DNA from: an uncultured Dictyoglomota bacterium
GTDB taxonomy: Bacteria; Dictyoglomota; Dictyoglomia; Dictyoglomales; Dictyoglomaceae
Reading direction: 5' to 3'
NCBI GenBank assembly: GCA_964654465.1
Contig: CAZZIO010000022.1
Span: 52,315 to 116,314 of the forward strand
DNA length: 64,000 nt
Positions 2,368 through 33,575 of the stretch are shown piece after piece (the stretch's first letter is position 1; every line of letters begins with the position of its first letter). A program made the translations under genes and the position numbers. Below the pieces are notes generated by a model. It had not been told where the DNA came from and made no database searches. It saw nothing but the letters and a program-made list of their open reading frames with translations.

Positions 2368-2456
2368 GGAGAGGTGGCCGAGTGGACGAAGGCGCTCGCC
2401 TCGAAAGCGAGTAGGCTGACAAAGCCTCGTGGGTTCGAATCCCACCCTCTCCGCCA
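2368..2456 (+). tRNA. tRNA-Ser (anticodon CGA) with encoded CCA end
   Basis: Acceptor stem GGAGAGG/CCTCTCC, anticodon arm CTCGC-CT-CGA-AA-GCGAG, long variable arm AGGCT..AGCCT, T-loop GGTTCGAATCC and GCCA end. Confidence 0.97.
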
Positions 2457-13153: not shown

Positions 13154-13171
13154 CTTTTAACCCCCTCTCAT

Positions 13172-14182
13172 CTATACAATTGGAATACCCTTCAAGTCAA
13201 GTTCTTTAGCAAAATGACAAGCCACGTAATGTTCATTACCTATATCAATTAAATCTGGCATCACCTCCTTACATATTTCCTTAGCATAATTACACCTTGG
13301 ATGAAAATAACATCCAGAAGGAGGGTTTGAAGCATCAGGTACTTCTCCCTTTAATAAAATTCTACGAGTTCGCATCTTCGGATCAGGTTTCGGAACAGCA
13401 GAAAGTAAAGCTTCTGTATATGGATGTCTTGGTTTTTCAAAGATTTCCTCTGTCCTTGCCAATTCTACAATCTTACCTACATACATAACAGCCACCCTAT
13501 CACAAATATGTTCTACTACTCCTAAATCATGAGATATAAAAAGATAGGTTAAATGAAATTCTTCTTGTAAATCTTTAAGAAGATTCAACACTTGGGCCTG
13601 AATTGAAACATCAAGAGCAGAAACTGGTTCATCACAAACCACTAATTTAGGATTAAGAGCCAAAGCCCTTGCAATACTTATTCTTTGTCTCTGTCCACCA
13701 GAAAAAGCATGAGGATATCTTCTCATATATTCAGGTCTTAATCCAACTTTCCTCATTAAATCTGCTACCCGTTCCTCTAACTCCTTACCCTTTGCAATCC
13801 CATTTACAAGAAGCGGCTCTCCAATAATCTCTTTAACAGTCATTCTTGGGTTCAAAGATCTAAAAGGATCCTGAAAGACCATCTGCATATATTTTCTAAC
13901 TTTATTTAATTCATTATTGGGTAGCTTAGCCACATTAATAGATATTCCATCAACATGAAGAATAACATCTCCTCCTGTTGGGTCATATGCCCTCAATATT
14001 ACTTTACCAGTCGTAGTTTTTCCACAACCAGACTCACCAACAAGCCCTAAGGTTTCTCCCTCCCTTACAAAAAAGCTAATATCATCTACAGCTTTAACCG
14101 TTGCAATCTGTTTTTTAAAGAAGCCTTTTGTCACAGGAAAATATTTCTTCAAATTTTTTACTTCCAAAAGGATACCATTCAT
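13172..14182 (-). CDS. Opp/Dpp-family ABC ATPase (OppF-like)
   Basis: [24 protein letters not shown] and the C-terminal GCYFHPRC. Confidence 0.93.
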
Positions 14183-15180
14183 GACTTTTCTACCTCTCCA
14201 TAAAGTAAACAGCTCACTTTATGTCCTGGTTTTACTTCTTTTAATTCTGGAACTCTTACATTACATAAACCATTTACAAATTGTGGACATCTTGGATGAA
14301 ATGTACAACCAGTTGGCATATTGTAAGGATCAGGAACAATTCCTTTTATAGCTTTTAATCTTCCCCTAACTTTCTTTCCTATTTTAGGAATAGATTCCAA
14401 TAAGGCTTTCGTGTAAGGATGTAAGGGGTCATAGAATATATCTTCCACCGAACCACTCTCCACTATCTTTCCAAGATACATTACTATAACCTCTTCTGCC
14501 ATTTCTGCTATAACTCCTAAGTTATGGGTTATCATCATAACTGCCATGCCAAATTGTTTCTGTAATTCCTTCATAAGCTCTAATATTTGAGCTTGAATTG
14601 TCACATCTAAGTTAGTTGTAGGTTCATCCGCTATCAATAATCTTGGTCTACAAGATAAAGCCATAGCAATCATTGCCCTTTGTAACATTCCACCACTGAA
14701 TTGATGAGGATATTCATCTATTCTCAATTCTGGTCTTGGAATTCCTGCAATCCTCATTAACTCAATTGCTGCTTCTCTCGCAGACTTTTTGTCAAGCTTT
14801 TGATGTAACATAATAGCCTCTATAATCTGTTCCCCCACAGTATGTACAGGAGAAAAAGAGGCTCCAGGTTCTTGGAATATCATAGCAATCTCTTTCCCTC
14901 TTATACTTCTAATTTCGTTCCCCTTAGGATCTAACTTTACCAGATCAATAATTTCTCCATCTCTATATAAAAAGATTTCTCCTTGAATTTTACTTCTTGG
15001 ACCAGTTAACTTTAATATGGAAAGGGCGGTAACGCTTTTACCACAACCCGATTCTCCAACAATCCCAAGAGTTTTTCCTTGCTTAATATCAAAGCTAATT
15101 CCATCAACTGCCTTTACCACTCCCTCTTCTAACACAAAATACGTTCTTAAATCTTTTACTTCCAATAATTTATCCATCAT
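14179..15180 (-). CDS. Opp/Dpp-family ABC ATPase (OppD-like)
   Basis: [24 protein letters not shown] and GCTFHPRC. Confidence 0.93.
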
Positions 15181-15190
15181 TTATTCCTCC

Positions 15191-16330
15191 TTATCTCGCA
15201 TAAGGATCTGCCGCATCCCTCAAACCATCTCCTACAAAATTAAAAGAAAGAACAACTAATATTACAAACAAAACAGGAAGGAGTAACCAAGGAGCCAATG
15301 CCACAGTTCTAAAGTTTTGAGCATCCTGTATTAAAACCCCCCAACTAAGAGCAGGTGGTCTTATACCTAAGCCCAAGAAACTAAGAGATGTCTCTCCAAT
15401 AATCATGCTAGGTATTGACAGGGTTAAAGAAGCTATAATATGGCTTAAGAAAGATGGTAATAAGTGTCTAAATATAACTCTTCTTTCACTGGCTCCAGCT
15501 AATTTTGCAGCTGTAACAAAATCTTCCTCTCTTAAAGACAAAAACTTACTTCTTACCTCACGAGCAAGACCCGTCCAACCAATAAAAGAAAGTATTATGG
15601 ATATTGCAAAATAAACCTTTACAGGAGACCAATTAGCAGGTACAGCTGCGGAAAGTGCCATCCATAGAGGTAATGTTGGTATACTTCTTAAAATTTCTAT
15701 AACTCTTTGAATAAGCAAGTCAAAAGGACCACCAAAATATCCTGAAATACCCCCAATCACTATTCCAAAAATAAAACTTAAAAAAATACCTACAAGACCC
15801 ACAGTGGTAGAAATTCTCGTACCATATATTACCCTAGAAAATACATCTCTGCCTAAGCTATCAGTACCAAATAAAAATATGTGTCCATCTCCCTCTACTC
15901 CAAATAGATGAATATTACTTTTAAATAAACCTAATACTTTATACTCATGGCCCCTAACAAAAAATTTAATAGGATACTTTTTGGATTTATCTTCTGTATA
16001 GATCCTTTTTAAGGTATTAGGATCAACCTCCATTTTATATGCATATACAAAAGGCCTCAAATGAAAGCCAGTTTCATCAATAAAATGAATTTTTTGAGGT
16101 GGTGCAAGTACATAACGAACATCGTATTTGTAGGGATCACTTGGAGCAAAAAATTCACAAAAGACTGCAATTATATAAAAGATTATTAATATTATACCTC
16201 CTAAAATAGCCAATTTGTTTCTTTTGAATCTCCACCACATAAGTTTCCATTGAGAAGCCACATAAATTTTTTCCTCCTTCTCTATATAACTTTCTTCTAT
16301 TATTTCTTCTCTCTTTTCCATCTTTGACAT
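15191..16330 (-). CDS. Opp-family ABC permease (OppC-like)
   Basis: FGTDSLGRD, the EAA loop FVTAAKLAGAS and ETSLSFLGLG. Start set at ATG 16330 behind GGAGGG. Confidence 0.92.
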   Translation of the reverse strand: MSKMEKREEIIEESYIEKEEKIYVASQWKLMWWRFKRNKLAILGGIILIIFYIIAVFCEFFAPSDPYKYDVRYVLAPPQKIHFIDETGFHLRPFVYAYKMEVDPNTLKRIYTEDKSKKYPIKFFVRGHEYKVLGLFKSNIHLFGVEGDGHIFLFGTDSLGRDVFSRVIYGTRISTTVGLVGIFLSFIFGIVIGGISGYFGGPFDLLIQRVIEILRSIPTLPLWMALSAAVPANWSPVKVYFAISIILSFIGWTGLAREVRSKFLSLREEDFVTAAKLAGASERRVIFRHLLPSFLSHIIASLTLSIPSMIIGETSLSFLGLGIRPPALSWGVLIQDAQNFRTVALAPWLLLPVLFVILVVLSFNFVGDGLRDAADPYAR

Positions 16331-16340
16331 ATTATCCCTC

Positions 16341-17324
16341 CTATTCATACCTTACCCTTGGATCTACCCATGCAAGAAGAATATCTGAGATCAATGTACC
16401 CAATAAGGTTAAACAACTTAACATAAGGAGGAATGCACCAGCTAAATACATATCCTGATTTCTTAAAGATTCTAAGAGCAAAGGTCCTGATGTAGGTAAA
16501 TTTAATACGATAGCTGTAATCTCAGCTCCTGAAACCAAAAACGGAAGTGACCAACCAACAGTACTTATAAAAGGAATTAAAGCTATTCTAAGAGGATATT
16601 TAAATACTACTTTCCATTCTTGAAGTCCTTTTGCTCTTGCTGTTAATACATATGGCTTATTCAATTCATCTAAAAGATTAGCTCTTAGAGTTCTTATCAT
16701 TCCTGCTGTGTTTGCAAGTCCAATAATCACTACTGGAACCCATATATGTTTCAACATATCTAAAAATTTTGCTAAACTCCAAGGAGCTTCTAAATATTCA
16801 GGAGAAAAAAGTCCTGTAAGATTTTGTCCAAAATAAGCATAAGCTACCCATAGCAATATTAAAGCAACCATAAAAGCAGGTACAGAAAGACCAATATATC
16901 CTAAAAAGGTAAATAAATAATCTCCAAAAGAGTATTGGTGAGTGGCAGAGTAGGTACCAATTAAAAATCCTACAACCCATATAAAGATAAGTGTAAATAA
17001 AGAAATAACGAAGGTTATTGCAAGCCTTTCTCCTATGAGTTCACTTACTGGTCTATTATATAAAAGAGATCTACCAAAATCCCCATGTAACACATTCCAT
17101 ATCCATAATAAATATTGCTCCCATATGGGTTTATCAAGACCATATTGTTTTTTTAAAGCTTCAATTGTTTCAAGATTTACAGACTCACCACTTGTAGCAA
17201 GTTGAGCTATATAAGAAGTAAGAAAATCCCCTGGAGGAAGTTGTATCACTATAAAAACAATTATAGATATAAAGAACAAAGTTAATATCATATATAGAAG
17301 TCTTTTGATGATATATTCTTTCAC
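16341..17324 (-). CDS. Opp-family ABC permease (OppB-like)
   Basis: YIIKRL..QLPPGD, YGLDKP, GDFGRS, TARAKGL and DPRVRY. Confidence 0.92.
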   Translation of the reverse strand: MKEYIIKRLLYMILTLFFISIIVFIVIQLPPGDFLTSYIAQLATSGESVNLETIEALKKQYGLDKPIWEQYLLWIWNVLHGDFGRSLLYNRPVSELIGERLAITFVISLFTLIFIWVVGFLIGTYSATHQYSFGDYLFTFLGYIGLSVPAFMVALILLWVAYAYFGQNLTGLFSPEYLEAPWSLAKFLDMLKHIWVPVVIIGLANTAGMIRTLRANLLDELNKPYVLTARAKGLQEWKVVFKYPLRIALIPFISTVGWSLPFLVSGAEITAIVLNLPTSGPLLLESLRNQDMYLAGAFLLMLSCLTLLGTLISDILLAWVDPRVRYE

Positions 17325-17450: not shown

Positions 17451-17588
17451 TATTAAAGAAAGGTTTCATAAAAAAACTAATAAATGGTTCCAGTTTTATA
17501 TTTCTTCTTGAAAGAATTCTTAAAAAAATTTAGAATAAAACAAACTGATTACAAAAAAATAAAAAATTTAAAGGAGAGAAGGAAGCAT

Positions 17589-18623
17589 ATGAGAAGACAA
17601 GAAAAAAAATCTCCAACAATGAAAGATGTGGCTAAATTAGCGGGAGTTTCCATTAGTACTGTTTCTCATGTGATAAATAAAACAAGATATGTAGAAAAAG
17701 AAACAAGAGAAAGAGTATATGAAGCTATAAAAACCTTAGGATATAGACCTAACATTTTAGCTAGTAGTTTACGAAAAAAAATAACTAATACCATAGGATT
17801 AATAATATCTAATATTACAAACCTATTCTATCCAGAGGTTGTTAGGGGCGTAGAGGATTATCTCACAAAATTTAACTATAATCTAATATTATGTAACTCT
17901 GATGAAGATGTAGAAAAGGAAAAAAACTATATAGAAGTGCTATTTAGTAGAAGAGTAGATGGATTAATAATTACTCCAAGTAAAAGTAGTGAAACAAGAG
18001 AAAATCTGGATTTATTTAGGGAAAAAAATATACCAATTGTTTTAGTAGATAGGAAAATAGAAGGATTAGATGAAGATGTGGTTTTAGTAGATAATGTGAA
18101 AGGTACTTATGATGCTATAAATTATTTAATAAGTTTAGGACATAAGAGAATTGGTATAATTACAGGACCATTAGACACTACAACAGGGTATGAAAGATTG
18201 GAGGGATATCTTAAAGCTTTAGAAGATAATAATATTAAAAAAGATAACAATTTAATTTATGAAGGAGACTTTAAAGAAAAGGGAGGTTATGAAGGAACAA
18301 GCTATCTTTTAAACTTAAAAAATCCACCAACAGCTATTTTCTCAAGTAATAACTTAATGGTGTTAGGATCACTAAAAAGGATTACTGAAATAGGAGTAAA
18401 AATTCCTTCTGATCTATCATTAATATCTTTTGATGATATGGAATGGTTCCCATATTTTTCACCCCCCCTAACAGCTGTATATCAACCAGCATATGAACTT
18501 GGTGAAACAGCTGTAAAACTTTTATTTGAAAGGCTTAAAAGAGGCAGAAAAAAGAAAAAAGAGGTTATACTACCCACCAAATTAGTAATAAGAGAATCAT
18601 GTGCTCCCCCTAAAAAAATATGA
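17589..18623 (+). CDS. LacI-family transcriptional regulator (probable xylan/xylose regulon repressor)
   Basis: TMKDVAKLAGVSISTVSHVIN HTH, YRPN hinge and an effector domain. Divergent from the ABC operon. Start moved to ATG 17589. Confidence 0.93.
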   Translation: MRRQEKKSPTMKDVAKLAGVSISTVSHVINKTRYVEKETRERVYEAIKTLGYRPNILASSLRKKITNTIGLIISNITNLFYPEVVRGVEDYLTKFNYNLILCNSDEDVEKEKNYIEVLFSRRVDGLIITPSKSSETRENLDLFREKNIPIVLVDRKIEGLDEDVVLVDNVKGTYDAINYLISLGHKRIGIITGPLDTTTGYERLEGYLKALEDNNIKKDNNLIYEGDFKEKGGYEGTSYLLNLKNPPTAIFSSNNLMVLGSLKRITEIGVKIPSDLSLISFDDMEWFPYFSPPLTAVYQPAYELGETAVKLLFERLKRGRKKKKEVILPTKLVIRESCAPPKKI

Positions 18624-20341: not shown

Positions 20342-20360
20342 GGAGGATTTAATCCTCCCT
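20340..20360. terminator. Hairpin between convergent genes
   Basis: AGGGAGGAT-tta-ATCCTCCCT followed by TTCTCCTTTT. Confidence 0.5.
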
Positions 20361-21272
20361 TTCTCCTTTTGGGTCAATATGAACCACAACATCTGAATTT
20401 TCAATATTTTTCTTTATAGAATCTTGAACCCTCAAAGCAATTTCATGAGCTTCTTTTGCGGTAAGATTATTTTCTACCTCGATATGTATAGTTATTACCT
20501 TTTGATTTTTATAATCATGCACTAATATATCGTGATAGTTTAAAACACCTGGTATAGAACATACAATACTTTCTATTTTCTTTATAAACTCCAATTTAGG
20601 GGCTTCTCCTATAAGAAAATTAGTAGAAGATTTAATCAAATCAAAACCAACTAAAAAAATTAATAACGAAACAATCAATCCTAAAATACCATCTAAGATA
20701 TACCATTCAAACATTGCAAAGACAAGACTAAGAGCCACAAGAATAGTAGCAATAGCATCACTTCGGTGATGCCATGCATCAGCAATTAGGGTTGATGAAT
20801 CAATCTTTTCTCCAAGAAAAATAGAAAATCTAGCCATCCATTCTTTAAAAATTGCAAAAATTATGAGTAATAGAAAAACCATAAGATTAAAACTAACTTT
20901 TTGAGAATGTAAAATTCTTTCAAAAGATTCTTTAGCAAGCTCAATTGCTACTATGATAAGAAGAATAGCTATTACAAGAGTGGCTATCTCTTCTATCCTA
21001 CCATGGCCAAAAGGATGTTCCTTATCAGCAGGTTTATTCCCTAATCTAAAGCCAAGGATAACGATGATAGAAGTTAAAACATCAGAAAGAGAATGAAAAG
21101 CATCAGCTATAAGAGCAATACTTCTTAAATATACACCAGAAAAGTATTTAAAGAGAAAAAAAATCAAATTACCTACCACACTTATCCAACCTTCTAAATA
21201 TCCTACATACCTTCTATCAACTTCTTTTTTAGAAAATATTTTTTCAAAAAGCCAGGCATTGAATTTCTTCAT
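20349..21272 (-). CDS. Cation diffusion facilitator (FieF/CzcD-family metal exporter)
   Basis: ADAFHSLSD, PADKEHPFGHGRIE, ADAWHHRSD and C-terminal HIEV..AH..VHIDP. Confidence 0.93.
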   Translation of the reverse strand: MKKFNAWLFEKIFSKKEVDRRYVGYLEGWISVVGNLIFFLFKYFSGVYLRSIALIADAFHSLSDVLTSIIVILGFRLGNKPADKEHPFGHGRIEEIATLVIAILLIIVAIELAKESFERILHSQKVSFNLMVFLLLIIFAIFKEWMARFSIFLGEKIDSSTLIADAWHHRSDAIATILVALSLVFAMFEWYILDGILGLIVSLLIFLVGFDLIKSSTNFLIGEAPKLEFIKKIESIVCSIPGVLNYHDILVHDYKNQKVITIHIEVENNLTAKEAHEIALRVQDSIKKNIENSDVVVHIDPKGERED

Positions 21273-21291
21273 TGTTTATCCTCCTAAAAAC

Positions 21292-21385
21292 AAAAATTCC
21301 TGCATTTCGCAGGAAGTCCCGCAAGCATATTAACAAAGCTTGCTGCCTTTAGATTACAAGGCCCGGCTTTATGGCCTGATCTTCC
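21292..21385 (-). ncRNA. czcD (NiCo) metal-sensing riboswitch with overlapping intrinsic terminator
   Basis: The minus strand reads GGAAGATCAGGC-cataaa-GCCGGGCCTT..AAGGCAGCAAGC..GCTTGCGGGACTTCC, a four-way junction with the CAGGC, GCCGGGC, GCAGC and GCGGGAC signatures. The terminator TTCCTGC-gaaat-GCAGGAA-TTTTT shares bases with P1. It lies upstream of a CDF gene. Confidence 0.88.
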
Positions 21386-21393
21386 TTAAAAGG

Positions 21394-21422
21394 ATTATAT
21401 AAGATAAATTTTTAAAAGTCAA
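21394..21422 (-). promoter_or_regulatory. Sigma70-type promoter TTGACT-17-TATAAT for the riboswitch-CDF transcript
   Basis: agtcaa at 21417-21422 and attata at 21394-21399. The predicted +1 falls just before P1. Confidence 0.8.
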
Positions 21423-21429
21423 AAAACAA

Positions 21430-22479
21430 TTAAAATTTGAATTTCTTAACTGCTTCTATTAAGGCTCTAATATTTTCTCCTGGTGTCCCTGGAGACACAC
21501 CTCCTCCAGCTGATAATATAATACCCTTTTTTTGACCATAATCTTTTAATATATTTTCAACACTTCTTTTTACATCTTCTTCTTTTCCTTTAACAAGGAT
21601 ATCAAGAGGTGGAACATTTCCCATAAGACATATTTTCCCTTGAGTCATTTCATAAACATCTTTTATATTTTGAAGATGAGTAAAATTAAAAATATTAATT
21701 CCTAAATCTGGTAAATACTTGTAAAAAACATTATTATTTGTATCATTATGATAAATCTTAACTGGGAAATCAAAAGTAGAGAATATCTTTTTCAAAGATG
21801 GATGTACAAATTCTAAATAATCACGTTCAGAGAAGAAACCCACTATATCATCTAACACCAATATCCCCTCTACCTCATGCAATATTTCTATCTGAGCAGT
21901 AAGAAAATCAATTACAAGTTCTGTTGTAATATCAATTAGCTTTTTAGCCTCTTCTGGATATAATTTTATAGATACTAAGAACTCAGTAACCCCCATTAAA
22001 TGAGACGCTACTGCAAAAGGTCCTCTTGCAGCTACAATTTTTATTGATTCACCCATACTATTTATTTTAGGTTCTACATATTTATATAATTCAAGTACAA
22101 GAGGCATTAGACCATCAGTTTTAGGATTTGGTTTTTTTACTCTCTTTAAAAATTCTGGAAGATCATCTGCAGAATATATAATTGGTTCTATACTTGGTGT
22201 AGAATTTTCATAGAAAATTATTTTTGATCCAAATCCTGAAGGCTCTTGTGCCATACCATATTCAACCCAAAAATCGGGTATAAAAATAACTTCGGAAAAC
22301 TGTTTTTTTATCTCCTTATAAGCCTCAATCCAAATCTCAGGAACAACATAAAACTGTAGATGAGAAATTCCCAAATATCCAGGAATCCATGGACTATCCA
22401 CAATCAGTGCTATAGGAATATCATCTTGTTCCTTAAACTGAACCGCTTTTAATAAAATATCCCAATCTTTTTCTTTCAT
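21430..22479 (-). CDS. UroD/MtaA-CmuA family protein (methyltransferase-like TIM barrel)
   Basis: GPFAVASHLMG, DD..GFFS..Y.EF..P, YHND, CLMGNVPP and ILSAGGGVSPGTP.ENI.A. It lacks the HemE N-terminal W.MRQAGR motif. Confidence 0.8.
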   Translation of the reverse strand: MKEKDWDILLKAVQFKEQDDIPIALIVDSPWIPGYLGISHLQFYVVPEIWIEAYKEIKKQFSEVIFIPDFWVEYGMAQEPSGFGSKIIFYENSTPSIEPIIYSADDLPEFLKRVKKPNPKTDGLMPLVLELYKYVEPKINSMGESIKIVAARGPFAVASHLMGVTEFLVSIKLYPEEAKKLIDITTELVIDFLTAQIEILHEVEGILVLDDIVGFFSERDYLEFVHPSLKKIFSTFDFPVKIYHNDTNNNVFYKYLPDLGINIFNFTHLQNIKDVYEMTQGKICLMGNVPPLDILVKGKEEDVKRSVENILKDYGQKKGIILSAGGGVSPGTPGENIRALIEAVKKFKF

Positions 22480-22492
22480 CTCATTCTCCCCC

Positions 22493-24541
22493 TTATGGAT
22501 ATATTTTCCTTCCCTTATCGTCGGGAATTCCAGTCTTTCTAAAGAAATAAGTATTTATAACATCTCTCCATTCCTTCGCATGTTCCAACTGCATTTCCAA
22601 TCTTTTAGAAACTCTTTCAAATATTTTATCATCAATTCTTTCTTTCAATTCATACCATTTTTCCTTAAGAACTTCTACTTCTTCTACCCCCTCAAAATGG
22701 AGGTCATATATTTGCTGTATAAGAGTTTTTCCAGATTTCAAAATAAATTTATATGGAACCCTGTGGAAGAAAAGAAGTAAGTCTTCTGGACATTTATTTA
22801 TATCATCATAAATCTCTCTCCAAGGAGAATGATATTGAAGAGTATAACCTGTTCCTTTTGAAGTTCTATCAATTCCTATAGCCTCATAATTTGCCCTATG
22901 ATATGTACCCCAACGAGAATACTCATAACCTTCAGGATTGGGTCCATAATGATACCCAGGATTCACCATCCAACCAAGTCCAAAAGGGGTTGTATACTTT
23001 TCATAAATTCTATGAGAATTTAACAACATATAAGAAATATTTTCTCTTACTTTGCTATCATCCCCAAATGTCAATTTTATCCAATCATCTACCACCTTAG
23101 CTATATCTCTATCTGGATTCCATGCTAATACTCCAAAAGTATAAAGATTCGCCTGAGCAAGATCATGTCCAGTCCAATTTGAACTATCTCCCACATTTGA
23201 TACTCCTGCAAAACCATTATATTTAGTCTCAAAAATTTTTCCTTTCAAAATCTCTTTAACTTTTGAGCCTTCACCTTTGGCATAAGTATCAAATTCTAAA
23301 ATTTCCTTCCACAATGTACCTAAATAACATAGATGAATTTGTTGCCCAGTATACTCTTGTGTTATTTGCAATTCTAAGATTTGATTAGTTTTTTCCATCC
23401 CCCCAAAAAGCGGTGATACAGGTTCCCTAACTTGAAAATCCATAGGTCCATATTTTATCTGAAGTACCACATTTTCATAAAAATTTCCATCTAAGGGCTT
23501 AAAGTTATCATAAGCTGCTCTAGCTCTATCTGTTTTATAATCTCTCCAGTCTTGCATACAATTATATACAAAGGTTCTCCATATCACATATCCCCCATAT
23601 GGTTCTAAGGCTTCTGCAAGCATATTCGCCCCATCTGCATGAGTTCTCCCATACATGTGGGGACCAGGGTTAAATTCAGAATCAGCTTTCACTAAAAAGC
23701 CTCCAAAATAAGGTATATAATCATAAATTTCTTCTGCTTTTGTCTTCCACCAAATGGAAACTCTTTTGTCTAAAGGATCAGCAGTAGAAAGACCGCCAAG
23801 ATAAATAGGAGAAGCAAAATTAATTGAAAGATAAATTTTTATTCCGTAATCCCAGAATATATTGGCAAGTCTTGAAAGAATCTTCAAATATTTATGGGTT
23901 ATAAGCTCTACTTCTTTTTTCTTCACATTTACATTATTTATTACAACACCATTTATACCAATGGAGGATAAAAGTCTAGCATAGTCCCTTGTCCTCTCAT
24001 TTATAATGATTTTGTTATCTTTAAAAAAAATGGAATTTCCTGCATACCCTCTTTCTACTGTTCCATCCAAATTATCCCAATGATTAATTATCCTAAAATA
24101 AGATGCAGGATTATCTACATGATTTAAATCATCTAATTTCTCACCTATTCTGAGATTTTCTATTAATTTAAAAACTGCATAAACCAAAGCCCTTTCATTT
24201 TTAGCAGTTATAATTAATATGTCTTTATCATTTTCCTTTATCCTCTTAAGTATAAAACCCTCATTATTTAATTTTCTTTCCCACATTTTAGCTTCTTTTA
24301 TAATATCTTTCATTTGATCGATTTTGCCAATCAAAATATACTTAGAAAAATCAAAGCTTCCTTTTATTACTCTCGGATTAATTTTAAAGGAATATTTTAT
24401 AAAGTGTTTAAGTTCCTTGATAGGGACCTCAAGAGATTTGTCATTATCTACAATACAAATAGTTCTAAATAAATCAAAATCTTTTATTTTTAAAGTTCTG
24501 TAATCCAACCAACACATATCATATGGCTTAACACTACTCAT
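22493..24541 (-). CDS. aguA: Alpha-glucuronidase, GH67
   Basis: [39 protein letters not shown] and QEYTGQQ. Confidence 0.96.
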
Positions 24542-24568
24542 TATTTAACTCCCCTATCTTTTTTAAAA

Positions 24569-24591
24569 ATTATACCATAAAAAATGTTTGC
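24569..24591 (-). promoter_or_regulatory. Extended -10 promoter (TGGTATAAT) of aguA with possible operator GCAAACATTTT
   Basis: attatacca at 24569-24577. AAAATGTTTGC at 24581-24591 is 9/11 identical to the xylose-regulon motif. Confidence 0.45.
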
Positions 24592-24712
24592 ACAATGGTT
24601 TTCTAGATAAGAGATTTTATTAGTTTATTTTACTAAAAATTAGACCCTATACATATTTTTAAAAAAGTAGTAAAATAAATGTAAAATTTAAATGTAAGAG
24701 GTGAGTTTATAT

Positions 24713-25825
24713 ATGCCATTAAAAGTCACAAAGATAAATGATAATATTACTGTGATACAGACACCGGAACAGCCCTTTTTATCTAATTCATATCTTGTTT
24801 CTTTAAATGGAAAAGAAAGAGTGTACCTTCTAGTTGACCCAACACCCCAAGAATATTTTAAAGACTTAATCTTTACATTAAACGATCTTATAGGAGGAGT
24901 AGAAAATTTAGATTTAATCTACGTAAATCATCAGGATCCAGATGTTACATCATCCTTAGCACCTATAATGGATATGAATAAAAATGCTCTTCTTATTACA
25001 TCTGAAGATACATGGAGATTAATAAGATTTTATGGTATTCCTAGAGAAAGATTTCAAGCCATAGAATATTTCCCAAATAGAAAAGTAGTACTTAAAACCA
25101 ATGACACCTTAGAATTTATACATACACCCTTCTGCCACTTTAGAGGGGCTTGGATGCTATTTATTCCAGAGAAAAAAGCCCTCTTTTCAGGTGACCTTTT
25201 AGGAGGTCTATCTTCCAGAGAAGTTAATGGGGTATTTGCTACTGAAGATTCCTGGGAGGGAATCAAACTTTTTCATGAAATATATATGCCATCAAAAGAA
25301 GCCTTGAGACTTGCAATAGATAAAATAGGTAGGTTAACTCCTCTTCCCGATATTATACTTCCACAACATGGTGACATAATAAGAAAAAATTTAATTGTTG
25401 ATTTTTTAGCTAAACTCAACGATTTAGAAGTAGGTTTAGATTATATTAAGAAATATGAATCCCAACAACAATTTTACCTCTATGCCTTTAATGAGATTTT
25501 ACAAAATTTAAAGAATAACTATTCAGATAAAGAAAAATTAATGCAAAAACTGAAGGAGATTAACTCTTCTCCATTTTTCCCAGAATTAATACATTTTGAA
25601 AATGGAGTAGCAACAGAATTTAGAATCCAACCAGAAACAGCCATTGAATTGCTTTATGATAAATTTAGCGAGGATGCCCAACGAGAAGAAAGAGAAAGCT
25701 TAAGAATTGATATAATTAAAACTCTTAGAAAATATAATCTTGACATCCCTGAAGGTATATTATATGAAAGACAAAGAGTTTCTGAAAATCCATTTAGAAG
25801 AATCTTTAAAATATTCCAGAGGTGA
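24713..25825 (+). CDS. Metallo-beta-lactamase fold protein, ODP (oxygen-binding di-iron protein)-like, with a C-terminal helical extension
   Basis: NSYL..LLVDP, NHQDPD, PFCHFRGA, LFSGD, FHEIYMP and PQHG. No flavodoxin domain is recognisable. Confidence 0.75.
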   Translation: MPLKVTKINDNITVIQTPEQPFLSNSYLVSLNGKERVYLLVDPTPQEYFKDLIFTLNDLIGGVENLDLIYVNHQDPDVTSSLAPIMDMNKNALLITSEDTWRLIRFYGIPRERFQAIEYFPNRKVVLKTNDTLEFIHTPFCHFRGAWMLFIPEKKALFSGDLLGGLSSREVNGVFATEDSWEGIKLFHEIYMPSKEALRLAIDKIGRLTPLPDIILPQHGDIIRKNLIVDFLAKLNDLEVGLDYIKKYESQQQFYLYAFNEILQNLKNNYSDKEKLMQKLKEINSSPFFPELIHFENGVATEFRIQPETAIELLYDKFSEDAQREERESLRIDIIKTLRKYNLDIPEGILYERQRVSENPFRRIFKIFQR

Positions 25826-25830
25826 TATCA

Positions 25831-26031
25831 ATGCCTATATTTGAGTTTAAATGTGAAGAATGTGGAGAAAAATTTGAAAAACTTGTATATTCTAATGAAG
25901 AGATACGATGTCCTAAGTGTGGAAGTAAAAATCTAAAAAAACTTATATCTTTGTTTGCCACATCTGGAATTGAACAAGGATCATCAGGTTGTTCTTCCTG
26001 TTCAGGAGGAAATTGTAGCTCTTGCCATTAA
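25831..26031 (+). CDS. FmdB-family zinc-ribbon protein
   Basis: MPIFEFKCEECG..FE..CPKCGS..LIS.F plus a Cys/Ser-rich tail. SD GAGGTG. Confidence 0.85.
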   Translation: MPIFEFKCEECGEKFEKLVYSNEEIRCPKCGSKNLKKLISLFATSGIEQGSSGCSSCSGGNCSSCH

Positions 26032-26032
26032 G

Positions 26033-26062
26033 AAAGGGAGAGGCTGTTACCTCTCCCTTTTT
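26033..26062. terminator. Bidirectional terminator
   Basis: AAAGGGAGAGG-ctgtta-CCTCTCCCTTTTT between convergent genes. Confidence 0.8.
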
Positions 26063-27808: not shown

Positions 27809-28762
27809 TTAGGTATAAAGACAACATTTAACAATTCTTCCATCTACCTCCACATCTGGTACTGGATTTTTACATTTATCCATTCTATATGGACATCTAC
27901 TTATAAATTTACAACCTTTCATTTGATATTCTTCTTCCTCTAAAGTAAGAATCTTAATATCCTTAGTCCATTTTTTCTTTGGATCTGGTTCTGGAATAGA
28001 TTCTTTAAGTAACATTGTATATGGATGCTTAGGATCTGTTAGTACTTTATCAACAGATCCCATTTCCACTATTTCACCTCTAAACATTATGGCGATCCTA
28101 TCACTAACATAATATGCTGTGGCAAGATCATGAGTAATATATAAAACACTTAACCCTATTTCTTTTTTAAGTTTTGCAAAGAGATTTACAATGGACATTC
28201 TCAAAGAAGCATCAACCATTGATACAGGCTCATCAGCCACAAGAAGAGTAGGATTAGTAAGTAAAGACCTGGCAATAGATATTCTTTGAAGCTGTCCTCC
28301 AGAAAACTCACTTGGATATTTATTTACCACGTCATTCCAAGTAAGTCCTACCAAATTTAATGCATTTTCTATCACTTCCTGATAATTACTATTTGCACCA
28401 AGATTTTTAGCAGTTTCTACAAGATAATTATGGACCATTCTTAATGGATTAAAAGTTTCAAATGGATTCTGAAAAACCGCTTGTACTTCTTTTCTAATAG
28501 ACTTCTTATCTTCCTTTTGAGATTCTATTATATTTTTTCCTTTGTATATTATCTTTCCAGATGTAGGTTCAAGAAATCCCAAAATAATCTTGGCAACTGT
28601 AGTCTTACCACTACCACTTTCTCCAGCAAGCGTAAAAATTTCAGATTCTTTAATATTAAAGGAGACATTATTAACAGCACTTATCTTCACTCGAGAAAAC
28701 ATAGAACCCAATGTAAAAATTTTTGTTAAATTCTCAACCCTTAATAGTATCTCTTTATTCAT
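27809..28762 (-). CDS. Opp-family ABC ATPase
   Basis: GESGSGKT, FSGGQLQR and DEPVSMVD. ATGA overlap with the upstream gene. Confidence 0.92.
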   Translation of the reverse strand: MNKEILLRVENLTKIFTLGSMFSRVKISAVNNVSFNIKESEIFTLAGESGSGKTTVAKIILGFLEPTSGKIIYKGKNIIESQKEDKKSIRKEVQAVFQNPFETFNPLRMVHNYLVETAKNLGANSNYQEVIENALNLVGLTWNDVVNKYPSEFSGGQLQRISIARSLLTNPTLLVADEPVSMVDASLRMSIVNLFAKLKKEIGLSVLYITHDLATAYYVSDRIAIMFRGEIVEMGSVDKVLTDPKHPYTMLLKESIPEPDPKKKWTKDIKILTLEEEEYQMKGCKFISRCPYRMDKCKNPVPDVEVDGRIVKCCLYT

Positions 28763-29748
28763 AGCTCTCTCTCCTTTGAATATAAAAAGCATGCTACTCT
28801 ATGTTCTGAATTTACACTTACAAATTCAGGTACATTAACTTTACATTCTTCCATAGCTTGACCACACCTTGGGTGAAATCTACAACCAGATGGTGGGTTT
28901 AAAAGGGATGGTGGTGCACCTGGAGCACTTACCCTATATGATTTATCTCCAATCTTGGGCAAAGCTCCTATAAGATATTTAGTATAAGGATGTAGTGGGC
29001 TCTCAAAAATCTCGGATGTAGGAGCCTCCTCTACAATCTTTCCAGCATACATTATAGCAATCCTATCAGATATACTTGCATGTACACCCATATCATGAGT
29101 AACAAGAATAACAGTGTTCTTCAAATTCTTTTGTATTTCTTTTAATAATTGAATCACTGCTCTTTGAGCCACTACATCCAAAGCAGTAGAAGGTTCATCA
29201 GCTACTATGATCTTCGGACTAAGAATAGTAGCAAGAGCTATTGTAACCCTTTGTCGCATACCCCCAGACAATTGGTGAGGATAAGCATCCAAAACCTTCG
29301 TGGGCAATCCTAGTAAAGCAAAATGCTCTTCTATATTTTTTCTCCAAGCACTTTTATCAGAAATATCAACATGAGAGCCAATAAAATCCCAAAAAGATTC
29401 AATTATTTTTACCACTGGATTTAATACACTCATTGATCCTTGAGGAATATATGAAATATAATTCCACCTTATACTCTCTAAGGACCCATTCGTAGAAAAA
29501 ATATTTTTATATTCATTATCTATTCTATAATAGACTTTTCCACCTACTACATTTAGTGGTGGCTCTACCATACCATAAAGAGTTTTAATAAGAGTACTCT
29601 TTCCACACCCTGATTCGCCAGCAATGCCATAAATTTCATTCTCTTTAATAGATATATTTATATTATCAACTGCTCTTACAGAATGAAGCTTACCCCCTAT
29701 ATCTAATAGATAATAAGCCTTTAAATTTTCTGCCTTTAAGATCTCCAT
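28759..29748 (-). CDS. Opp-family ABC ATPase
   Basis: [24 protein letters not shown] and GCRFHPRC. Confidence 0.92.
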   Translation of the reverse strand: MEILKAENLKAYYLLDIGGKLHSVRAVDNINISIKENEIYGIAGESGCGKSTLIKTLYGMVEPPLNVVGGKVYYRIDNEYKNIFSTNGSLESIRWNYISYIPQGSMSVLNPVVKIIESFWDFIGSHVDISDKSAWRKNIEEHFALLGLPTKVLDAYPHQLSGGMRQRVTIALATILSPKIIVADEPSTALDVVAQRAVIQLLKEIQKNLKNTVILVTHDMGVHASISDRIAIMYAGKIVEEAPTSEIFESPLHPYTKYLIGALPKIGDKSYRVSAPGAPPSLLNPPSGCRFHPRCGQAMEECKVNVPEFVSVNSEHRVACFLYSKEREL

Positions 29749-29752
29749 TTCA

Positions 29753-30616
29753 TCACTCCCTTATAACTCTAATTCTTTGTATTCTTGTTCGAGGATCTAA
29801 ATACTCACTTATACTCACAGAAAGTAGATATAAACTTACAAAAAGCAATACTGATGTTACGACAGGAGTTAACAACCACCACCACAAACCTAAAAGCATT
29901 GCTTGATAACTTATAGCCCACTGTAAAACTGTACCTAAGGTTGGAATTTCAAGATTAGTCAAACCTAAAATAGCAAGAGTTATCTCCATTCCAATAGCCC
30001 ATGACATATTGTTTATCAATGTTGAAAAAACAATTGGAATAACGAAGGGAAAATATTCTTTGAATACTAATTGAATAGTATTTGTGCCAGATAATAGAGC
30101 AGTATATGTAAAATCTCTTTCTCTTAAACTTAATATCTGGGATCTAATTACTCGAGCATCCCAACTCCATCCAAAAACACTCAAAATAAGACCTAAGCCT
30201 ACAAAGCTTAGCCTCCCTTTTATAAGAGATGAAATTAATATCAAAATTGGCAATAGTGGCAAAACCAAGAAGCTATCATTTATTCCCATTAAAAATCTAT
30301 CCAGCCTTCCTCCTCTATATCCAGCTACGAGCCCAACAATAATAGCTATTATTCTAGAGAAAAACGCAGCTATTATAGCTATAGTTAAAGAGTTCCTTAT
30401 GGCAAAGGTAAGTTGCCAAAATACATCTTGCCCTTGAGAATTAGTACCCAAAATATGTTGCAATGATGGAGGTAAATCTCTTGGAGCTACATTCCATCTT
30501 GTAGGATCATAGGGAGATACAAAAGAAAGCAAAGCTAAAAAGAGAATCAAACATATAATTATAAATCCTACCCTGAATTTTCCATCTCTCAATAAATCTT
30601 TAAAGATACCCACCAT
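29753..30616 (-). CDS. Opp-family ABC permease (OppC-like)
   Basis: HILGTNSQGQD, RSQILSLRERDF, multiple TM segments and LDPR. Confidence 0.9.
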   Translation of the reverse strand: MVGIFKDLLRDGKFRVGFIIICLILFLALLSFVSPYDPTRWNVAPRDLPPSLQHILGTNSQGQDVFWQLTFAIRNSLTIAIIAAFFSRIIAIIVGLVAGYRGGRLDRFLMGINDSFLVLPLLPILILISSLIKGRLSFVGLGLILSVFGWSWDARVIRSQILSLRERDFTYTALLSGTNTIQLVFKEYFPFVIPIVFSTLINNMSWAIGMEITLAILGLTNLEIPTLGTVLQWAISYQAMLLGLWWWLLTPVVTSVLLFVSLYLLSVSISEYLDPRTRIQRIRVIRE

Positions 30617-30644
30617 ATTATTACCTCATTCCCTTCAAAAATTT

Positions 30645-31646
30645 TTATCTATATCTAACACGAGGGTCAAATAATGGATACAATAGATCTATAAGCAAGA
30701 TAAAGGTTGAAATACCAAAAATAGATATAGTGGCAATTCCCATAATTAAGTTAAAATCTCCCGTAGCAATTGCGTTATATAGTAAAGTTCCCATTCCTGG
30801 ATAAGAAAACACAATTTCGGTAATAAGAGCCCCACTAAATATTTGCCCCATAGATAAAGCCAAATTAGTAACCTGAGGAAGCATAGCATTTCTAATCACA
30901 TATTTAAAAGCGATTATTCTTCTTTTTACTCCTCCAGCCCTTGCATAAGTTACAAAATCCTCTTTTACAATATTAGAAACTATAAGCCTCATAGTTTGTA
31001 ATGTTACTGCAATCCCTAATACCATCATTGAAATTAAAGGTAAGAAAGCATACCTAAACAATTCAAATATAAATTTAATACTAAAACTTGGTACAACACC
31101 AACAGGCATACCACCACCCAAAGGAAACCATTTAAGAAGGTACGAAAAAACGATGAGAATTATAAGAGCAAATATATAATAGGGAATTGGCCTTATAACC
31201 ATAGCTATACTTTCCATAACCCTTGCCCACCTTTTATCATAATAAAAACCTACAATTCCACCTAATATGTTTCCTATAAACCAAGATAAAAAAGTACTTA
31301 TCGTAAGAAGTCCCAAGGTCCATGGCAAAGAATCCCCTATAAGTTTTATAACTGGAATAGGAAATCTAAAAAGTGATGGCCCAAAATCTCCATTTAAAAG
31401 TCTTCCCCAAAAAGCAAAATATTGCTCAAATAAATTTCCTTTCAATCCATATAACTCTTTCAAGGTCTCTGTCATTTTTTCTACTGCCTTTGGATCAAGA
31501 TAGGTTCCCATTCTTGTAATTGTATTGATCATCTGTTGTACAGGATCCACGGGAGTAAGGCGGGGAACAAAAAAAACAATGGTTACACCAACAAAAATTA
31601 CTAACAGATATTGTATTAACCTTGGTATCAGATATCTTTTAAACAT
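30645..31646 (-). CDS. Opp-family ABC permease (OppB-like)
   Basis: YLIPRL..PRLTPVDP, GDFGPS, RNAMLPQ and DPRVRY. Confidence 0.9.
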   Translation of the reverse strand: MFKRYLIPRLIQYLLVIFVGVTIVFFVPRLTPVDPVQQMINTITRMGTYLDPKAVEKMTETLKELYGLKGNLFEQYFAFWGRLLNGDFGPSLFRFPIPVIKLIGDSLPWTLGLLTISTFLSWFIGNILGGIVGFYYDKRWARVMESIAMVIRPIPYYIFALIILIVFSYLLKWFPLGGGMPVGVVPSFSIKFIFELFRYAFLPLISMMVLGIAVTLQTMRLIVSNIVKEDFVTYARAGGVKRRIIAFKYVIRNAMLPQVTNLALSMGQIFSGALITEIVFSYPGMGTLLYNAIATGDFNLIMGIATISIFGISTFILLIDLLYPLFDPRVRYR

Positions 31647-31668
31647 TCCATACCTCCTTCCATTTTTT

Positions 31669-31689
31669 AGCCCCCCTTTCGGGGGGCTT
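31669..31689 (-). terminator. Hairpin between SBP and permease genes (attenuator/mRNA stabiliser)
   Basis: AGCCCCCC-tttc-GGGGGGCT. Confidence 0.65.
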
Positions 31690-31694
31690 ATTTT

Positions 31695-33575
31695 TCATTT
31701 TCTTCCTGTTGGCTTCAAGAATGGTAACATGTACTTGAAATTGGGCCAATGATGATATGGTATACAATATGGATTTTCTACTGTTGGATAATTGGTCCAG
31801 TAATATTCATCATAGCTTGCTATACCTGGATAAGCACAAGTTGGAATTCCAGCCATTTCTTCAAATGCAATTTTTAATCCTTGCAATCCCAAAGTTTTAA
31901 CTTTTACACTGTTCCAATCAGTATTTGCCAACTCTTCTATCACTTTATCCATCCTTGGATCAGACCATCTACTAGCATGACCAAATGTACGTTCACCTAT
32001 TGGTCTTACATATTCGGATCTCCATGCATTAAAACTTCTATACATATCAGGATGTCCACCCCATGGTTCTGTAGCTGGCCAATCAGAAGAAGCCTCAAAA
32101 TCTCCTACTTGTAGCATCGTGGCTCTTTGCTCTGTTGTCACTACCTCTACATCTATTCCAAATTTTTTCCATTGCTGGGATGCTGCAAAACTATTTCTAA
32201 AATCAGGATGGGCAGGATTAGTGTGAGCTAGAATTGTTATTTTCCACGGTTTACCATCTGGTGTTAGCCATTTTCCATCTTTATCTCTCTTAAATCCATT
32301 CTTTATCAATAATTTTTCAGCTATATCAGGTGCATACTTGAACCATCCATAACCAAATATTGCCCTAATTTCTTTCGGATCATTTGGAACTGTATATCCT
32401 CTTCTCTTAGCATATTCAGCCAGTCTCATAGGTGCATCTGGATCATAAATTTTAACTTTTTGACCATCCACCGTAATAGTAAAGTTTTTCATCCAATTTT
32501 CCAAAGGTTCATAATACCATTTCAAATATGCAGGTGTAGGAGGTACAAGAAGTGCTCCCATAGTAGCTGCACCATCAAAAGCAGTTGCTAAGTATTCAAC
32601 TATATCAATTGATAAAGCTAATGCCCATCTAACTTCCTTATTATTATATGGAGCTTTTGAAGTATTAAAATATATTCCTGTAATACATGGGTCTACATTA
32701 ACGATGTATGGGAAGTTCTTCATATATGCCCTTGCATATTTATTTGTAGATAATACTGATCTCAACCCTTCCATAGTTAGATCTGCCATGTCTAATTGAT
32801 GGTTGTTTTGGGCAAGGACTTGTTTCTCAGTTGGTCCATAGTAGTAGAAGAGTACATATTTAGGTTGTGGCATTCCAAAGAGTTTTCCTGTTGGTGTTCT
32901 TTGCCAATCTTCTCTCCTCTGCCAGAGTACCCAGTATCCACCTGGATCATAGCTATGTAATACATATGGCCCTGAGCTTATTGGTGGTTTGAAATCAAAA
33001 GATACTGGATCTTTTACTTTTTCAAAAACATGTTTTGGTAATGGCCTACAAGCTCCCCATCTATCTAAGAAATAAGTATGAAATCTTGCATTAGGCTCTT
33101 TCAGGTCAATCCTAACAGTGTATTTATCAATCTTAGTTAATTTAACAACTTCCTGGAAAGAAGCATAATAACTCATTCCTGAATTACTTTTAGCAAGCTC
33201 TATTGTATAGATTAGATCATCCGCAGTAATTTCGACACCATCACTCCAATAACAAGCAGGTCTTAGTTTTACAGTTAGGGTTTTGAAATCCTTACTATAC
33301 AGAGGAGAAGCGGCAGCTAATGCGTTAATTGCTTTGCCTGTGGCAGGATCTACAATCCATAGCGGTTCTAACATAAGCTGCTGAATACCTCTATCTGGAG
33401 TACGCCAAGTGGCAGCCCAAACATTAAAATTATCCGGAGTAACCACTCTACCTGTAAGAATATTAGCAATCAAAGTTTCATTTCTTGGTACATTTGGTCC
33501 TAACTGTGAAAAGGCTGTTTGAGATAATGTGATTACCATTAATAATACTAAACTCATGAAAACTAATTTCTTCAT
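31695..33575 (-). CDS. ABC substrate-binding protein, family 5 (resembles Thermotoga xylo-/beta-gluco-oligosaccharide binding proteins)
   Basis: Signal peptide, PRNETLI..LTGRV..NFN.W, YWSDG, SSGPY and YWTNYPT.ENPY. Confidence 0.88.
   Translation of the reverse strand: MKKLVFMSLVLLMVITLSQTAFSQLGPNVPRNETLIANILTGRVVTPDNFNVWAATWRTPDRGIQQLMLEPLWIVDPATGKAINALAAASPLYSKDFKTLTVKLRPACYWSDGVEITADDLIYTIELAKSNSGMSYYASFQEVVKLTKIDKYTVRIDLKEPNARFHTYFLDRWGACRPLPKHVFEKVKDPVSFDFKPPISSGPYVLHSYDPGGYWVLWQRREDWQRTPTGKLFGMPQPKYVLFYYYGPTEKQVLAQNNHQLDMADLTMEGLRSVLSTNKYARAYMKNFPYIVNVDPCITGIYFNTSKAPYNNKEVRWALALSIDIVEYLATAFDGAATMGALLVPPTPAYLKWYYEPLENWMKNFTITVDGQKVKIYDPDAPMRLAEYAKRRGYTVPNDPKEIRAIFGYGWFKYAPDIAEKLLIKNGFKRDKDGKWLTPDGKPWKITILAHTNPAHPDFRNSFAASQQWKKFGIDVEVVTTEQRATMLQVGDFEASSDWPATEPWGGHPDMYRSFNAWRSEYVRPIGERTFGHASRWSDPRMDKVIEELANTDWNSVKVKTLGLQGLKIAFEEMAGIPTCAYPGIASYDEYYWTNYPTVENPYCIPYHHWPNFKYMLPFLKPTGRK

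Follow-up and report, generated by a model that had tools for sequence, protein, structure and literature searches.

What does a protein of the UroD/MtaA fold do when its gene sits directly behind that of a GH67 alpha-glucuronidase? This question is raised by a stretch of 64,000 nucleotides (nt) from an uncultured Dictyoglomota bacterium (GenBank assembly GCA_964654465.1, contig CAZZIO010000022.1, positions 52,315 to 116,314 of the forward strand), hereafter the window. The host genome belongs to the Dictyoglomaceae and comprises 1.91 Mb in 72 contigs, with a completeness of 99.97%. On the minus strand of the window, the gene for a GH67 alpha-glucuronidase of 682 amino acids (aa) (aguA, 22493..24541) is followed by the gene for a 349-aa UroD/MtaA-fold protein (21430..22479), which we call UroD1. 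The known product of GH67 enzymes is (4-O-methyl)glucuronate, and hardwood xylan carries 4-O-methylglucuronate as its chief acidic side chain. An original prediction, made from the DNA alone, took UroD1 to be the methyltransferase of a sugar O-demethylase. Comparative genomics, namely an operon in a sister genus, the conserved pairing with GH67 and the gene links of the wider family, supports this reading. On balance we think it probable that UroD1 is the substrate-side methyltransferase of a corrinoid-dependent O-demethylase that acts on 4-O-methylglucuronate, and that it works on the loading side. That the UroD1 family takes part in corrinoid-dependent methyl transfer of some kind we consider quite likely.

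UroD1 and GH67 form a conserved gene pair

The aguA product matches all three GH67 Pfam domains (E = 3e-157, 1e-95 and 8e-17) and, going by the role of its family, would release (4-O-methyl)glucuronate from imported xylo-oligosaccharides. The available text of a Dictyoglomus turgidum genome analysis reports activity of the GH67 enzyme of that species on xylan and xylo-oligosaccharides (PMC5167688). Only 13 nt separate the two genes of the window (22480..22492, minus strand), which is too short for a promoter or a terminator. The same spacer provides UroD1 with a Shine-Dalgarno-like sequence of its own, a purine-rich run GGGGGAG before the ATG, and on both points the original prediction was right.

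The downstream boundary of the pair is the leader of a cation-diffusion-facilitator (CDF) transporter gene (leader 21273..21429, gene 20349-21272, both on the minus strand). This leader contains a promoter-like site just past the UroD1 stop (TTGACT-17-TATAAT, 21422-21394, 11 of 12 matches), a nickel/cobalt (NiCo) riboswitch (RF02683, 21312-21393, 43.1 bits against a gathering score of 37, E = 8.7e-9) and a terminator-like hairpin (21315-21297), all on the minus strand. The riboswitch was found by a local E-value scan and was missed by the whole-window Rfam scan at the gathering threshold. Promoter-like sites as a class are not enriched in the AT-rich window, where 26 were found and 23.3 expected. 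The promoter-like site and the riboswitch indicate that the CDF gene has its own control region, as had been claimed for the gene that follows UroD1, and the succession of promoter-like site, riboswitch and CDF gene implies that GH67 and UroD1 end as a unit. At the other end, the intergenic region upstream of the pair (24542..24700, minus strand) is shared with a divergent ODP-family gene (24701..25825, plus strand, from the ORF map); promoter-like matches there are weak (9 of 12, at 24567-24540). GH67 and the 349-aa gene are a two-gene unit. The position of a cobalt-efflux control element beside the gene for a putative corrinoid-dependent enzyme is probably a coincidence.

Relatives of UroD1 (E = 1e-40 or better) are present in eight of the ten other Dictyoglomaceae genomes and in none of 30 genomes of other families. 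GH67 is directly upstream of UroD1 in all eight of these loci and is 67-83% identical to the GH67 of the window; where the gene calls are clean, the spacers measure 11-19 nt. The pair is found in three different flanks. In genera g1 and g2 the pair is followed downstream by a CDF gene and has a GH10 xylanase or an ODP-family gene on its upstream side, while in G006 it is preceded by an Opp-type transporter operon. The third flank, in G007, G009 and G010, consists of a different Opp-type operon upstream and then three further genes before GH67. UroD1 was not found in G002, which is 86% complete and in which the GH67 match runs into a contig end. Some matches contain in-frame stops, namely UroD1 of G010 (one TAG) and the reductive activase RACo, described below, of G004, G005, G006 and G009 (TAG or TAA). 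These could be match overhang, sequencing errors or decay.

The metal site of UroD1 is altered

UroD1 is a member of the URO-D Pfam family (PF01208, E = 1e-45). Its translation contains the strings YHND and SAGGG and lacks RQAGR, which we take to be the HemE motif; these features had been read correctly from the start. HemE was rejected as an identity for UroD1, which scores 71.5 bits against the TIGR01464 equivalog cut-off of 302.95. According to the available text of the D. turgidum genome analysis, no hemes, sirohemes or corrinoids are made (PMC5167688). A score far below the cut-off and a lineage reported to lack tetrapyrrole synthesis both disfavour HemE. We also rejected a MtaA/MtbA/CmuA-type methylcobamide:thiol methyltransferase, because the NCBIfam scores of UroD1 are below the cut-offs (106 against 244, 90 against 235, 80 against 400 and 54 against 600 bits) and the zinc cysteine ligands are replaced.

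In the HMMER alignment of UroD1 with MtaA (PDB 4ay7, E = 3.8e-11), the H-x-C of MtaA corresponds to H244-N-D246 and its G-C-G to G325-G-G. UroD1 retains the zinc histidine of MtaA, and both cysteine ligands are replaced (by Asp246 and Gly326). The alignment thus shows that the metal site really is altered relative to the H-x-C and C-terminal Cys of MtaA-type enzymes, as originally proposed. No variation occurs at H244 and G325-G327 among 80 family members, and conservation at N245 and D246 is 90% or higher. Judging from these sequences, the replacements are a trait of the family. Further invariant residues in the 80 members are D28, S29, W31, E73, E79, R152, Q196, D210, N265, S323 and N336. 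The AlphaFold2 model of UroD1 (predicted local distance difference test score 96.4) is a UroD/MtaA TIM barrel, whose best fold match is MtaA 4ay7 with a template modelling (TM) score of 0.78-0.81. Foldseek also matched it to many HemE structures at TM 0.74-0.78, and a search of the ESM Atlas with UroD1 returned 'URO-D family' clusters only.

Putative corrinoid partners are encoded with UroD1 in a sister genus and on another contig of the host

In a sister genus, g3 (genomes G007, G009 and G010), and in the metagenome-assembled genome loci L001 and L026, genes for a corrinoid protein, RACo, MtaB, GH67 and UroD1 follow one another on the same strand, with gaps of at most 14 nt or overlaps. The corrinoid protein is of the MtaC type (214 aa, B12-binding_2 and B12-binding domains). 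RACo is a reductive activase of about 580 aa with 2Fe-2S, linker, middle and ASKHA domains. MtaB (L019:6162-7580 and L021:5567-7021, also in L020, L001 and L026) matches PF12176 at E = 1e-167 and the Methanosarcina barkeri enzyme (PDB 2i2x) at E = 7e-105, and the stretches around what are presumably the zinc ligands are near-identical between the two MtaB proteins. A bona fide MtaB is found within a xylan side-chain operon of a fermentative thermophile, in 3 of the 11 Dictyoglomaceae genomes. In G006, a convergent corrinoid protein gene lies 26 nt downstream of UroD1, behind a GH3 gene.

MtaB was not found in the window's own genome. The corrinoid protein and RACo of this genome are located on contig C65, outside the window, which agrees with the original expectation that the partners are encoded elsewhere. 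They are part of an operon-like row on one strand (C65:47011-53169, equal to locus L110:5012-11170) that consists of a LacI regulator, the corrinoid protein (212 aa, with a DxHxxG motif), RACo (568 aa), a second URO-D paralog that we call UroD2 (320 aa), an HcyBio homocysteine-biosynthesis gene and a NIL/4Fe-4S protein. The same gene order is found in G001, G003 and G005. UroD2 retains the H-x-C and Cys motifs of MtaA. The make-up of the row points to a methyl-corrinoid:homocysteine route leading to methionine, with regulation of the sugar type.

GH67, the corrinoid protein and RACo are each present in 10 of the 11 Dictyoglomaceae genomes. None of the three, nor any URO-D gene, was found in G008, which is 99% complete. 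PF02607 has one match in nine of the 11 genomes, two in G010 and none in G008, and five relatives searched with the C65 corrinoid protein gave one strong match each, 71-80% identical to the copy in the window's genome. In these five relatives the corrinoid protein is encoded beside UroD2 in g1 and g2 and beside GH67-UroD1 in g3. MtaB occurs only in the three genomes in which UroD2 was not found. UroD1 is constant while UroD2 and MtaB are swapped, with a pterin-binding enzyme in relatives, and this fits UroD1 as the substrate-specific loader. Since the Dictyoglomaceae genomes are kin, the pattern of co-absence and exchange reflects one or a few evolutionary events and is not a statistic.

Some relatives in other phyla adjoin uronate or corrinoid genes

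A word-indexed search returned 3153 relatives, many of them 50-57% identical, in Moorella, Thermanaeromonas, Actinomycetota, Anaerolineales and Limisphaerales. They are annotated only as URO-D ('uroporphyrinogen decarboxylase family protein') or as MtaA/CmuA family. A profile search of 1.84 billion representatives yielded 338 family cluster representatives at E = 1e-30 or better. The family is rare, yet spread over several phyla.

We compared the neighbourhoods of 84 homolog loci (4 genomic and 80 metagenomic). Neighbours were assigned with Pfam for L002-L089 and with custom hidden Markov models (HMMs) of 16 families for all 84 loci; the last 45 neighbour open reading frames (L089-L103) were assigned by the custom HMMs only. 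Merging copies at 90% identity and setting aside Dictyoglomaceae-like loci left 72 unique loci. A corrinoid protein, RACo or a pterin-binding methyltransferase is encoded at 13 of these, and GH67, UxaC, UxaE, UxuA, KdgA or KdgK at 16. Corrinoid or uronate genes are present at 27 unique loci, and both at two (L066 and L073). Among the 38 unique loci with at least 2 kb downstream, seven have a corrinoid protein and 12 a uronate gene. Homologs thus do adjoin uronate genes as well as MtaC-type corrinoid proteins, RACo and pterin-binding methyltransferases, the link that the original prediction had expected to see; the outcome that it had named as counting against it, homologs with no tie to uronate genes, did not occur.

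Outside the Dictyoglomaceae, a corrinoid protein is encoded immediately downstream of the family member at 11 loci and within 2.3 kb at a twelfth, and these loci fall into three clades. Where family members of other phyla have a corrinoid protein beside them, its identity to the copy in the window's genome is 46-50%. In L072 an aldo-keto reductase is followed by a full four-part O-demethylase set, in the order UroD1 homolog, corrinoid protein, pterin-binding methyltransferase and RACo. The same set is found in L073, where the corrinoid protein and the pterin methyltransferase lie between the homolog and UxaC, which comes directly after the set, with UxaE further on. L062 and L064 have GH67 as an adjacent, divergent neighbour, and in L054 it is 7 kb away. 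The family forms one supported group (98) in a quick maximum-likelihood tree; GH67 neighbours turn up at four distinct points in it, adjacent corrinoid proteins in three clades, and uronate genes likewise in three.

Three distant relatives (P0163, P0186 and P0261, of 615, 750 and 589 aa) consist of a URO-D domain followed by B12-binding_2 and B12-binding domains. They are only 27-29% identical to UroD1, but where the zinc ligands once were they have the same H-x-D and Gly-Gly motifs. Within the superfamily, fusion of this motif class to a corrinoid module does therefore exist. By eye, about 160 extra N-terminal residues of P0186 appear to resemble the end portion of a pterin-binding domain. 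A second, divergent URO-D paralog is found directly beside the family member in L056/L057, L067, L069, L074, L100 and L103. Two of these paralogs have H-x-C and a C-terminal His and one has H-x-D; they may be partner methyltransferases.

A proposed route for the methyl group

The UroD superfamily includes the methyltransferase I enzymes MtvB, OdmB, VdmB, MtoB and CdmB of corrinoid O-demethylases and dehalogenases. CdmB and the O-demethylase found in Moorella thermoacetica are without zinc, and a 2026 paper on CdmB proposes that the corrinoid protein docks at the mouth of the barrel (available text of PMC13222342 for all three statements). In the route that we propose, GH67 would free 4-O-methylglucuronate from imported xylan fragments, and UroD1 would bind it and present the O-methyl group to Co(I) of the one MtaC-type corrinoid protein that the genome has. 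Attack of Co(I) on the methyl carbon would yield glucuronate and a methyl-Co(III) protein, and this is what a methyltransferase I does. Corrinoid that becomes oxidised to Co(II) would be rescued by the ATP-dependent RACo, and a second methyltransferase would empty the corrinoid protein. We infer the substrate from the pairing with GH67, and likewise infer the direction of transfer and the acceptor; the support for a methyltransferase comes from genomic context.

The unloading enzyme would differ between genomes. UroD2, which has kept its zinc site, could pass the methyl group to a thiol, as we suggest for the window's genome; MtaB could pass it to water, giving methanol, and a pterin-binding enzyme to tetrahydrofolate. 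Because homocysteine-biosynthesis genes follow UroD2 directly, the methoxyl groups of xylan might end in methionine. MtaB is reportedly reversible, from work of Sauer and Thauer in 1997. Running in reverse in g3 it would release methanol, and the two methyl transfers would sum to hydrolysis of the ether. A more far-reaching picture, which we think less likely than not, is that a strictly fermentative, non-methylotrophic thermophile without corrinoid synthesis uses a relay on scavenged corrinoid to remove methyl ethers from plant sugar acids, with two interchangeable methyl outlets (MtaB in reverse to methanol and an MtaA-like zinc enzyme to a thiol).

Points against a sugar O-demethylase, and alternative explanations

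Several observations weigh against the route proposed above. As a leaving group, a sugar alkoxide is far inferior to a phenolate, and it would have to be activated without a Cys-zinc site. The closest solved relative of UroD1 is MtaA, which unloads rather than loads methyl-corrinoid, and similarity to characterised methyltransferase I enzymes is weak, with CdmB (E = 1.6e-4) as the sole one among solved structures. Neither corrinoid nor uronate genes are present in the available stretch at 45 of the 72 unique loci, and many of these 45 are on contigs of 1-4 kb. In a Chloroflexota sample, the family occurs in 3 of 301 genomes, two of them with RACo, and G186, which carries a family member, has no RACo match; RACo is common in this sample (108 of 301) and the family is found in three genomes, which leaves the co-occurrence test without power.

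The supply of corrinoid and the fate of the glucuronate are further difficulties. CobS was found in none of the 11 Dictyoglomaceae genomes, so that there is no corrinoid synthesis of their own, and no cobalamin riboswitch was found. Together with the published genome analysis, which agrees as far as its available text goes (PMC5167688), this means that the organism must import corrinoid. UxaC (PF02614) was not found in any of the 11 Dictyoglomaceae genomes either. The premise of the original prediction that a uxaC route follows demethylation thereby falls away in this lineage. What the window's genome does have is KduI beside KdgA, KdgK beside a pectate lyase, and a UxaE cluster (C62:38237-44450) of UxaE, a 2-hydroxyacid dehydrogenase, an FGGY kinase, a 6-phosphogluconate dehydrogenase and an SDR. 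This cluster may be an unrecognised hexuronate route, and an SDR resembling the one in it recurs in ten homolog loci.

How do these points bear on other explanations of UroD1? It could be a corrinoid-dependent methyltransferase I for another donor, such as a uronic acid methyl ester (pectin-derived galacturonate in methyl-esterified form, for instance), a different O-methyl sugar or a methoxylated aromatic on xylan fragments. One clade of the family neighbours UxaC and UxaE (tagaturonate epimerase) and L075 contains an oligogalacturonate lyase, which points to galacturonate, while further clades have paired GFO/IDH/MocA oxidoreductases, aldo-keto reductases and TRAP transporters. Given these differing neighbours, substrates may differ across the family. 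General chemistry favours an ester as well, since a carboxylate is a far better leaving group than an alkoxide for attack by Co(I). We nevertheless consider another donor unlikely for the Dictyoglomaceae, where UroD1 is always immediately downstream of GH67 (eight of eight loci); a GH67 neighbour is seen again at three further points of the tree (L054, L062 and L064), and the product of GH67 is known from its family. It might be objected that the adjacency is meaningless and that UroD1 is a stand-alone UroD-family protein merely travelling with GH67 in one bacterial family, because kin share gene order and eight conserved loci from one family are not independent. This is hardly credible, as the pair survives three different flank rearrangements, GH67 adjacency is independent in the three loci outside the Dictyoglomaceae, and uronate neighbours are found at 16 of the 72 unique loci.

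Corrinoid might not be involved at all. UroD itself is cofactor-free, the 4-O is the leaving-group position in beta-elimination of uronates, and 59 of the 72 unique loci have no corrinoid gene in the available stretch. UroD1 could then be a lyase that eliminates methanol to give a 4,5-unsaturated uronate for KduI, KdgK and KdgA, or a sugar-acid decarboxylase. The first of these is kept alive by the window's genome, in which UxaC was not found and KduI is present next to KdgA, with KdgK next to a pectate lyase. A corrinoid-independent enzyme is nonetheless improbable in view of the corrinoid proteins encoded immediately downstream at 11 loci and within 2.3 kb at a twelfth, the placement in the same operon in g3, the co-absence with the corrinoid protein and RACo in G008, and the fusion of relatives with the same motifs to a corrinoid domain. 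In addition, KduI is near a family member at only 2 of the 84 loci, against 9 for UxaC. If corrinoid is involved, the methyl group could also flow the other way, with MtaB (from methanol) or UroD2 loading the corrinoid protein and UroD1, as a methyltransferase II, passing the methyl group to a non-thiol acceptor. MtaA, the best solved relative, does unload methyl-corrinoid, and in the g3 operon UroD1 stands where methanogens have MtaA, next to MtaB and MtaC (layout drawn in PMC10418091). We regard this direction as very unlikely, because UroD1 has no thiol-activating Cys-zinc site, the unloading role in L072 and L073 is already filled by a pterin-binding methyltransferase, methylation of a sugar acid would serve no obvious purpose in catabolic clusters with GH67, UxaC and KdgK, and UroD1 stays constant across genomes in which MtaB and UroD2 stand in for one another.

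Transporters and other genes of the window

Two Opp-type ABC transporter operons, both on the minus strand and assigned by Pfam and context, are found in the window. The first (11237..17324) encodes a binding protein, two ATPases and two permeases and is a candidate importer of glucurono-xylo-oligosaccharides; its orthologs (75-79% identity) are directly upstream of GH67-UroD1 in G006 (L022). Orthologs of the second (27809..33575; 66-81% identity) are directly upstream of the corrinoid protein-RACo-MtaB-GH67-UroD1 row in G007, G009 and G010. A LacI-family regulator (17484..18623, plus strand, from Pfam and context) is divergent from the first operon and shares 42% identity with the LacI at the head of the C65 corrinoid-protein operon. 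A LacI operator shared by the region upstream of GH67, the LacI/transporter region of the window and the C65 operon was not found beyond loosely similar half-sites, and the 10 near-matches from a scan of the genome showed no pattern.

Three genes separate GH67 from the second ABC operon (24701-27721): the ODP-family gene, which has a metallo-beta-lactamase fold (plus strand), one for a DUF362 protein that has two 4Fe-4S motifs, and one for a macro-domain protein. G001 and G003 have orthologs of each; G005 has those of the ODP-family and macro-domain genes, and a DUF362 ortholog was not found there. The only Rfam match at the gathering threshold across the window is a tRNA gene (2368-2453, plus strand).

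UroD1 in the light of known demethylases

Our literature search found no description of an anaerobic or corrinoid-dependent carbohydrate O-demethylase, with most subscription journals lying outside its coverage. The only carbohydrate O-demethylase that it found is an oxygen-dependent P450 acting on 6-O-methylgalactose (available text of PMC6292453). Ether demethylation is absent from PMC5217386, PMC11235125 and PMC13425298, which belong to the literature on 4-O-methylglucuronate, and the terms sugar, glucuron and carbohydrate do not occur in the text of PMC10418091 on mlp gene clusters of MtaA-like proteins. A search on Dictyoglomus, corrinoid and MtaB found nothing relevant.

If UroD1 is indeed the methyltransferase of a sugar O-demethylase, it would offer a testable enzyme for the missing anaerobic step of methyl-ether removal in hemicellulose catabolism. 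It would carry corrinoid O-demethylases beyond aryl ethers to an alkyl ether of a sugar, place such a system in fermenters, outside the acetogens and methanogens, and put a name to a rare multi-phylum family annotated only as 'uroporphyrinogen decarboxylase family protein'. In anoxic habitats, hemicellulose would moreover be a new source of methanol or methyl groups, and a thermostable ether-cleaving enzyme could be of use in biomass processing. The kind of system is already known; granted the underlying reading, towards which we lean, what is new here is the class of substrate and the biological setting.

The methyltransferase I enzymes MtvB, OdmB, VdmB, MtoB and CdmB belong to the same TIM-barrel superfamily as UroD1. 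Their systems combine a corrinoid protein, a pterin-binding methyltransferase II and a RACo-type activase, and the same set accompanies the UroD1 relatives in L072 and L073. The g3 Dictyoglomaceae have a gene set of this type in the GH67 operon, with MtaB as the second methyltransferase, and the window's genome has the set on C65. A zinc-free active site, known in CdmB and the M. thermoacetica O-demethylase (available text of PMC13222342), would be a further parallel to UroD1. The known enzymes take aryl methyl ethers or methyl halides as substrates, in acetogens and methanogens, and feed the methyl group into C1 pathways, whereas UroD1 is paired with a glycoside hydrolase in a fermenter and is proposed to act on an alkyl (sugar) methyl ether. 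It has invariant residues of its own, and its similarity to CdmB is marginal.

MtaA (4ay7) is the best match to UroD1 in both sequence and fold. The two have the zinc histidine in common, but both cysteine ligands are replaced in UroD1, and it is UroD2 that carries the MtaA motifs in the window's genome. MtaA-type proteins are encoded with a corrinoid protein, and so are the UroD1 relatives of the g3 operon and of the 12 loci outside the Dictyoglomaceae, whereas the copy in the window's genome is on C65. The MtaB/MtaC/MtaA methanol:coenzyme M system of Methanosarcina and the g3 operon both contain an MtaC-type corrinoid protein and MtaB. The g3 operon differs in that there is no methanogenesis and no coenzyme M context, and in that it is set between an oligosaccharide ABC transporter and GH67. 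HemE has the same fold and Pfam family as UroD1, whose family instead travels with sugar-acid and corrinoid-protein genes. The same logic, in which a methyl ether is removed before the sugar is catabolised, is seen in the cytochrome P450 6-O-methyl-D-galactose demethylase of marine bacteria. That enzyme has an unrelated fold, depends on oxygen and works oxidatively with release of formaldehyde (available text of PMC6292453), and the proposed UroD1 system would be its anaerobic counterpart by methyl transfer.

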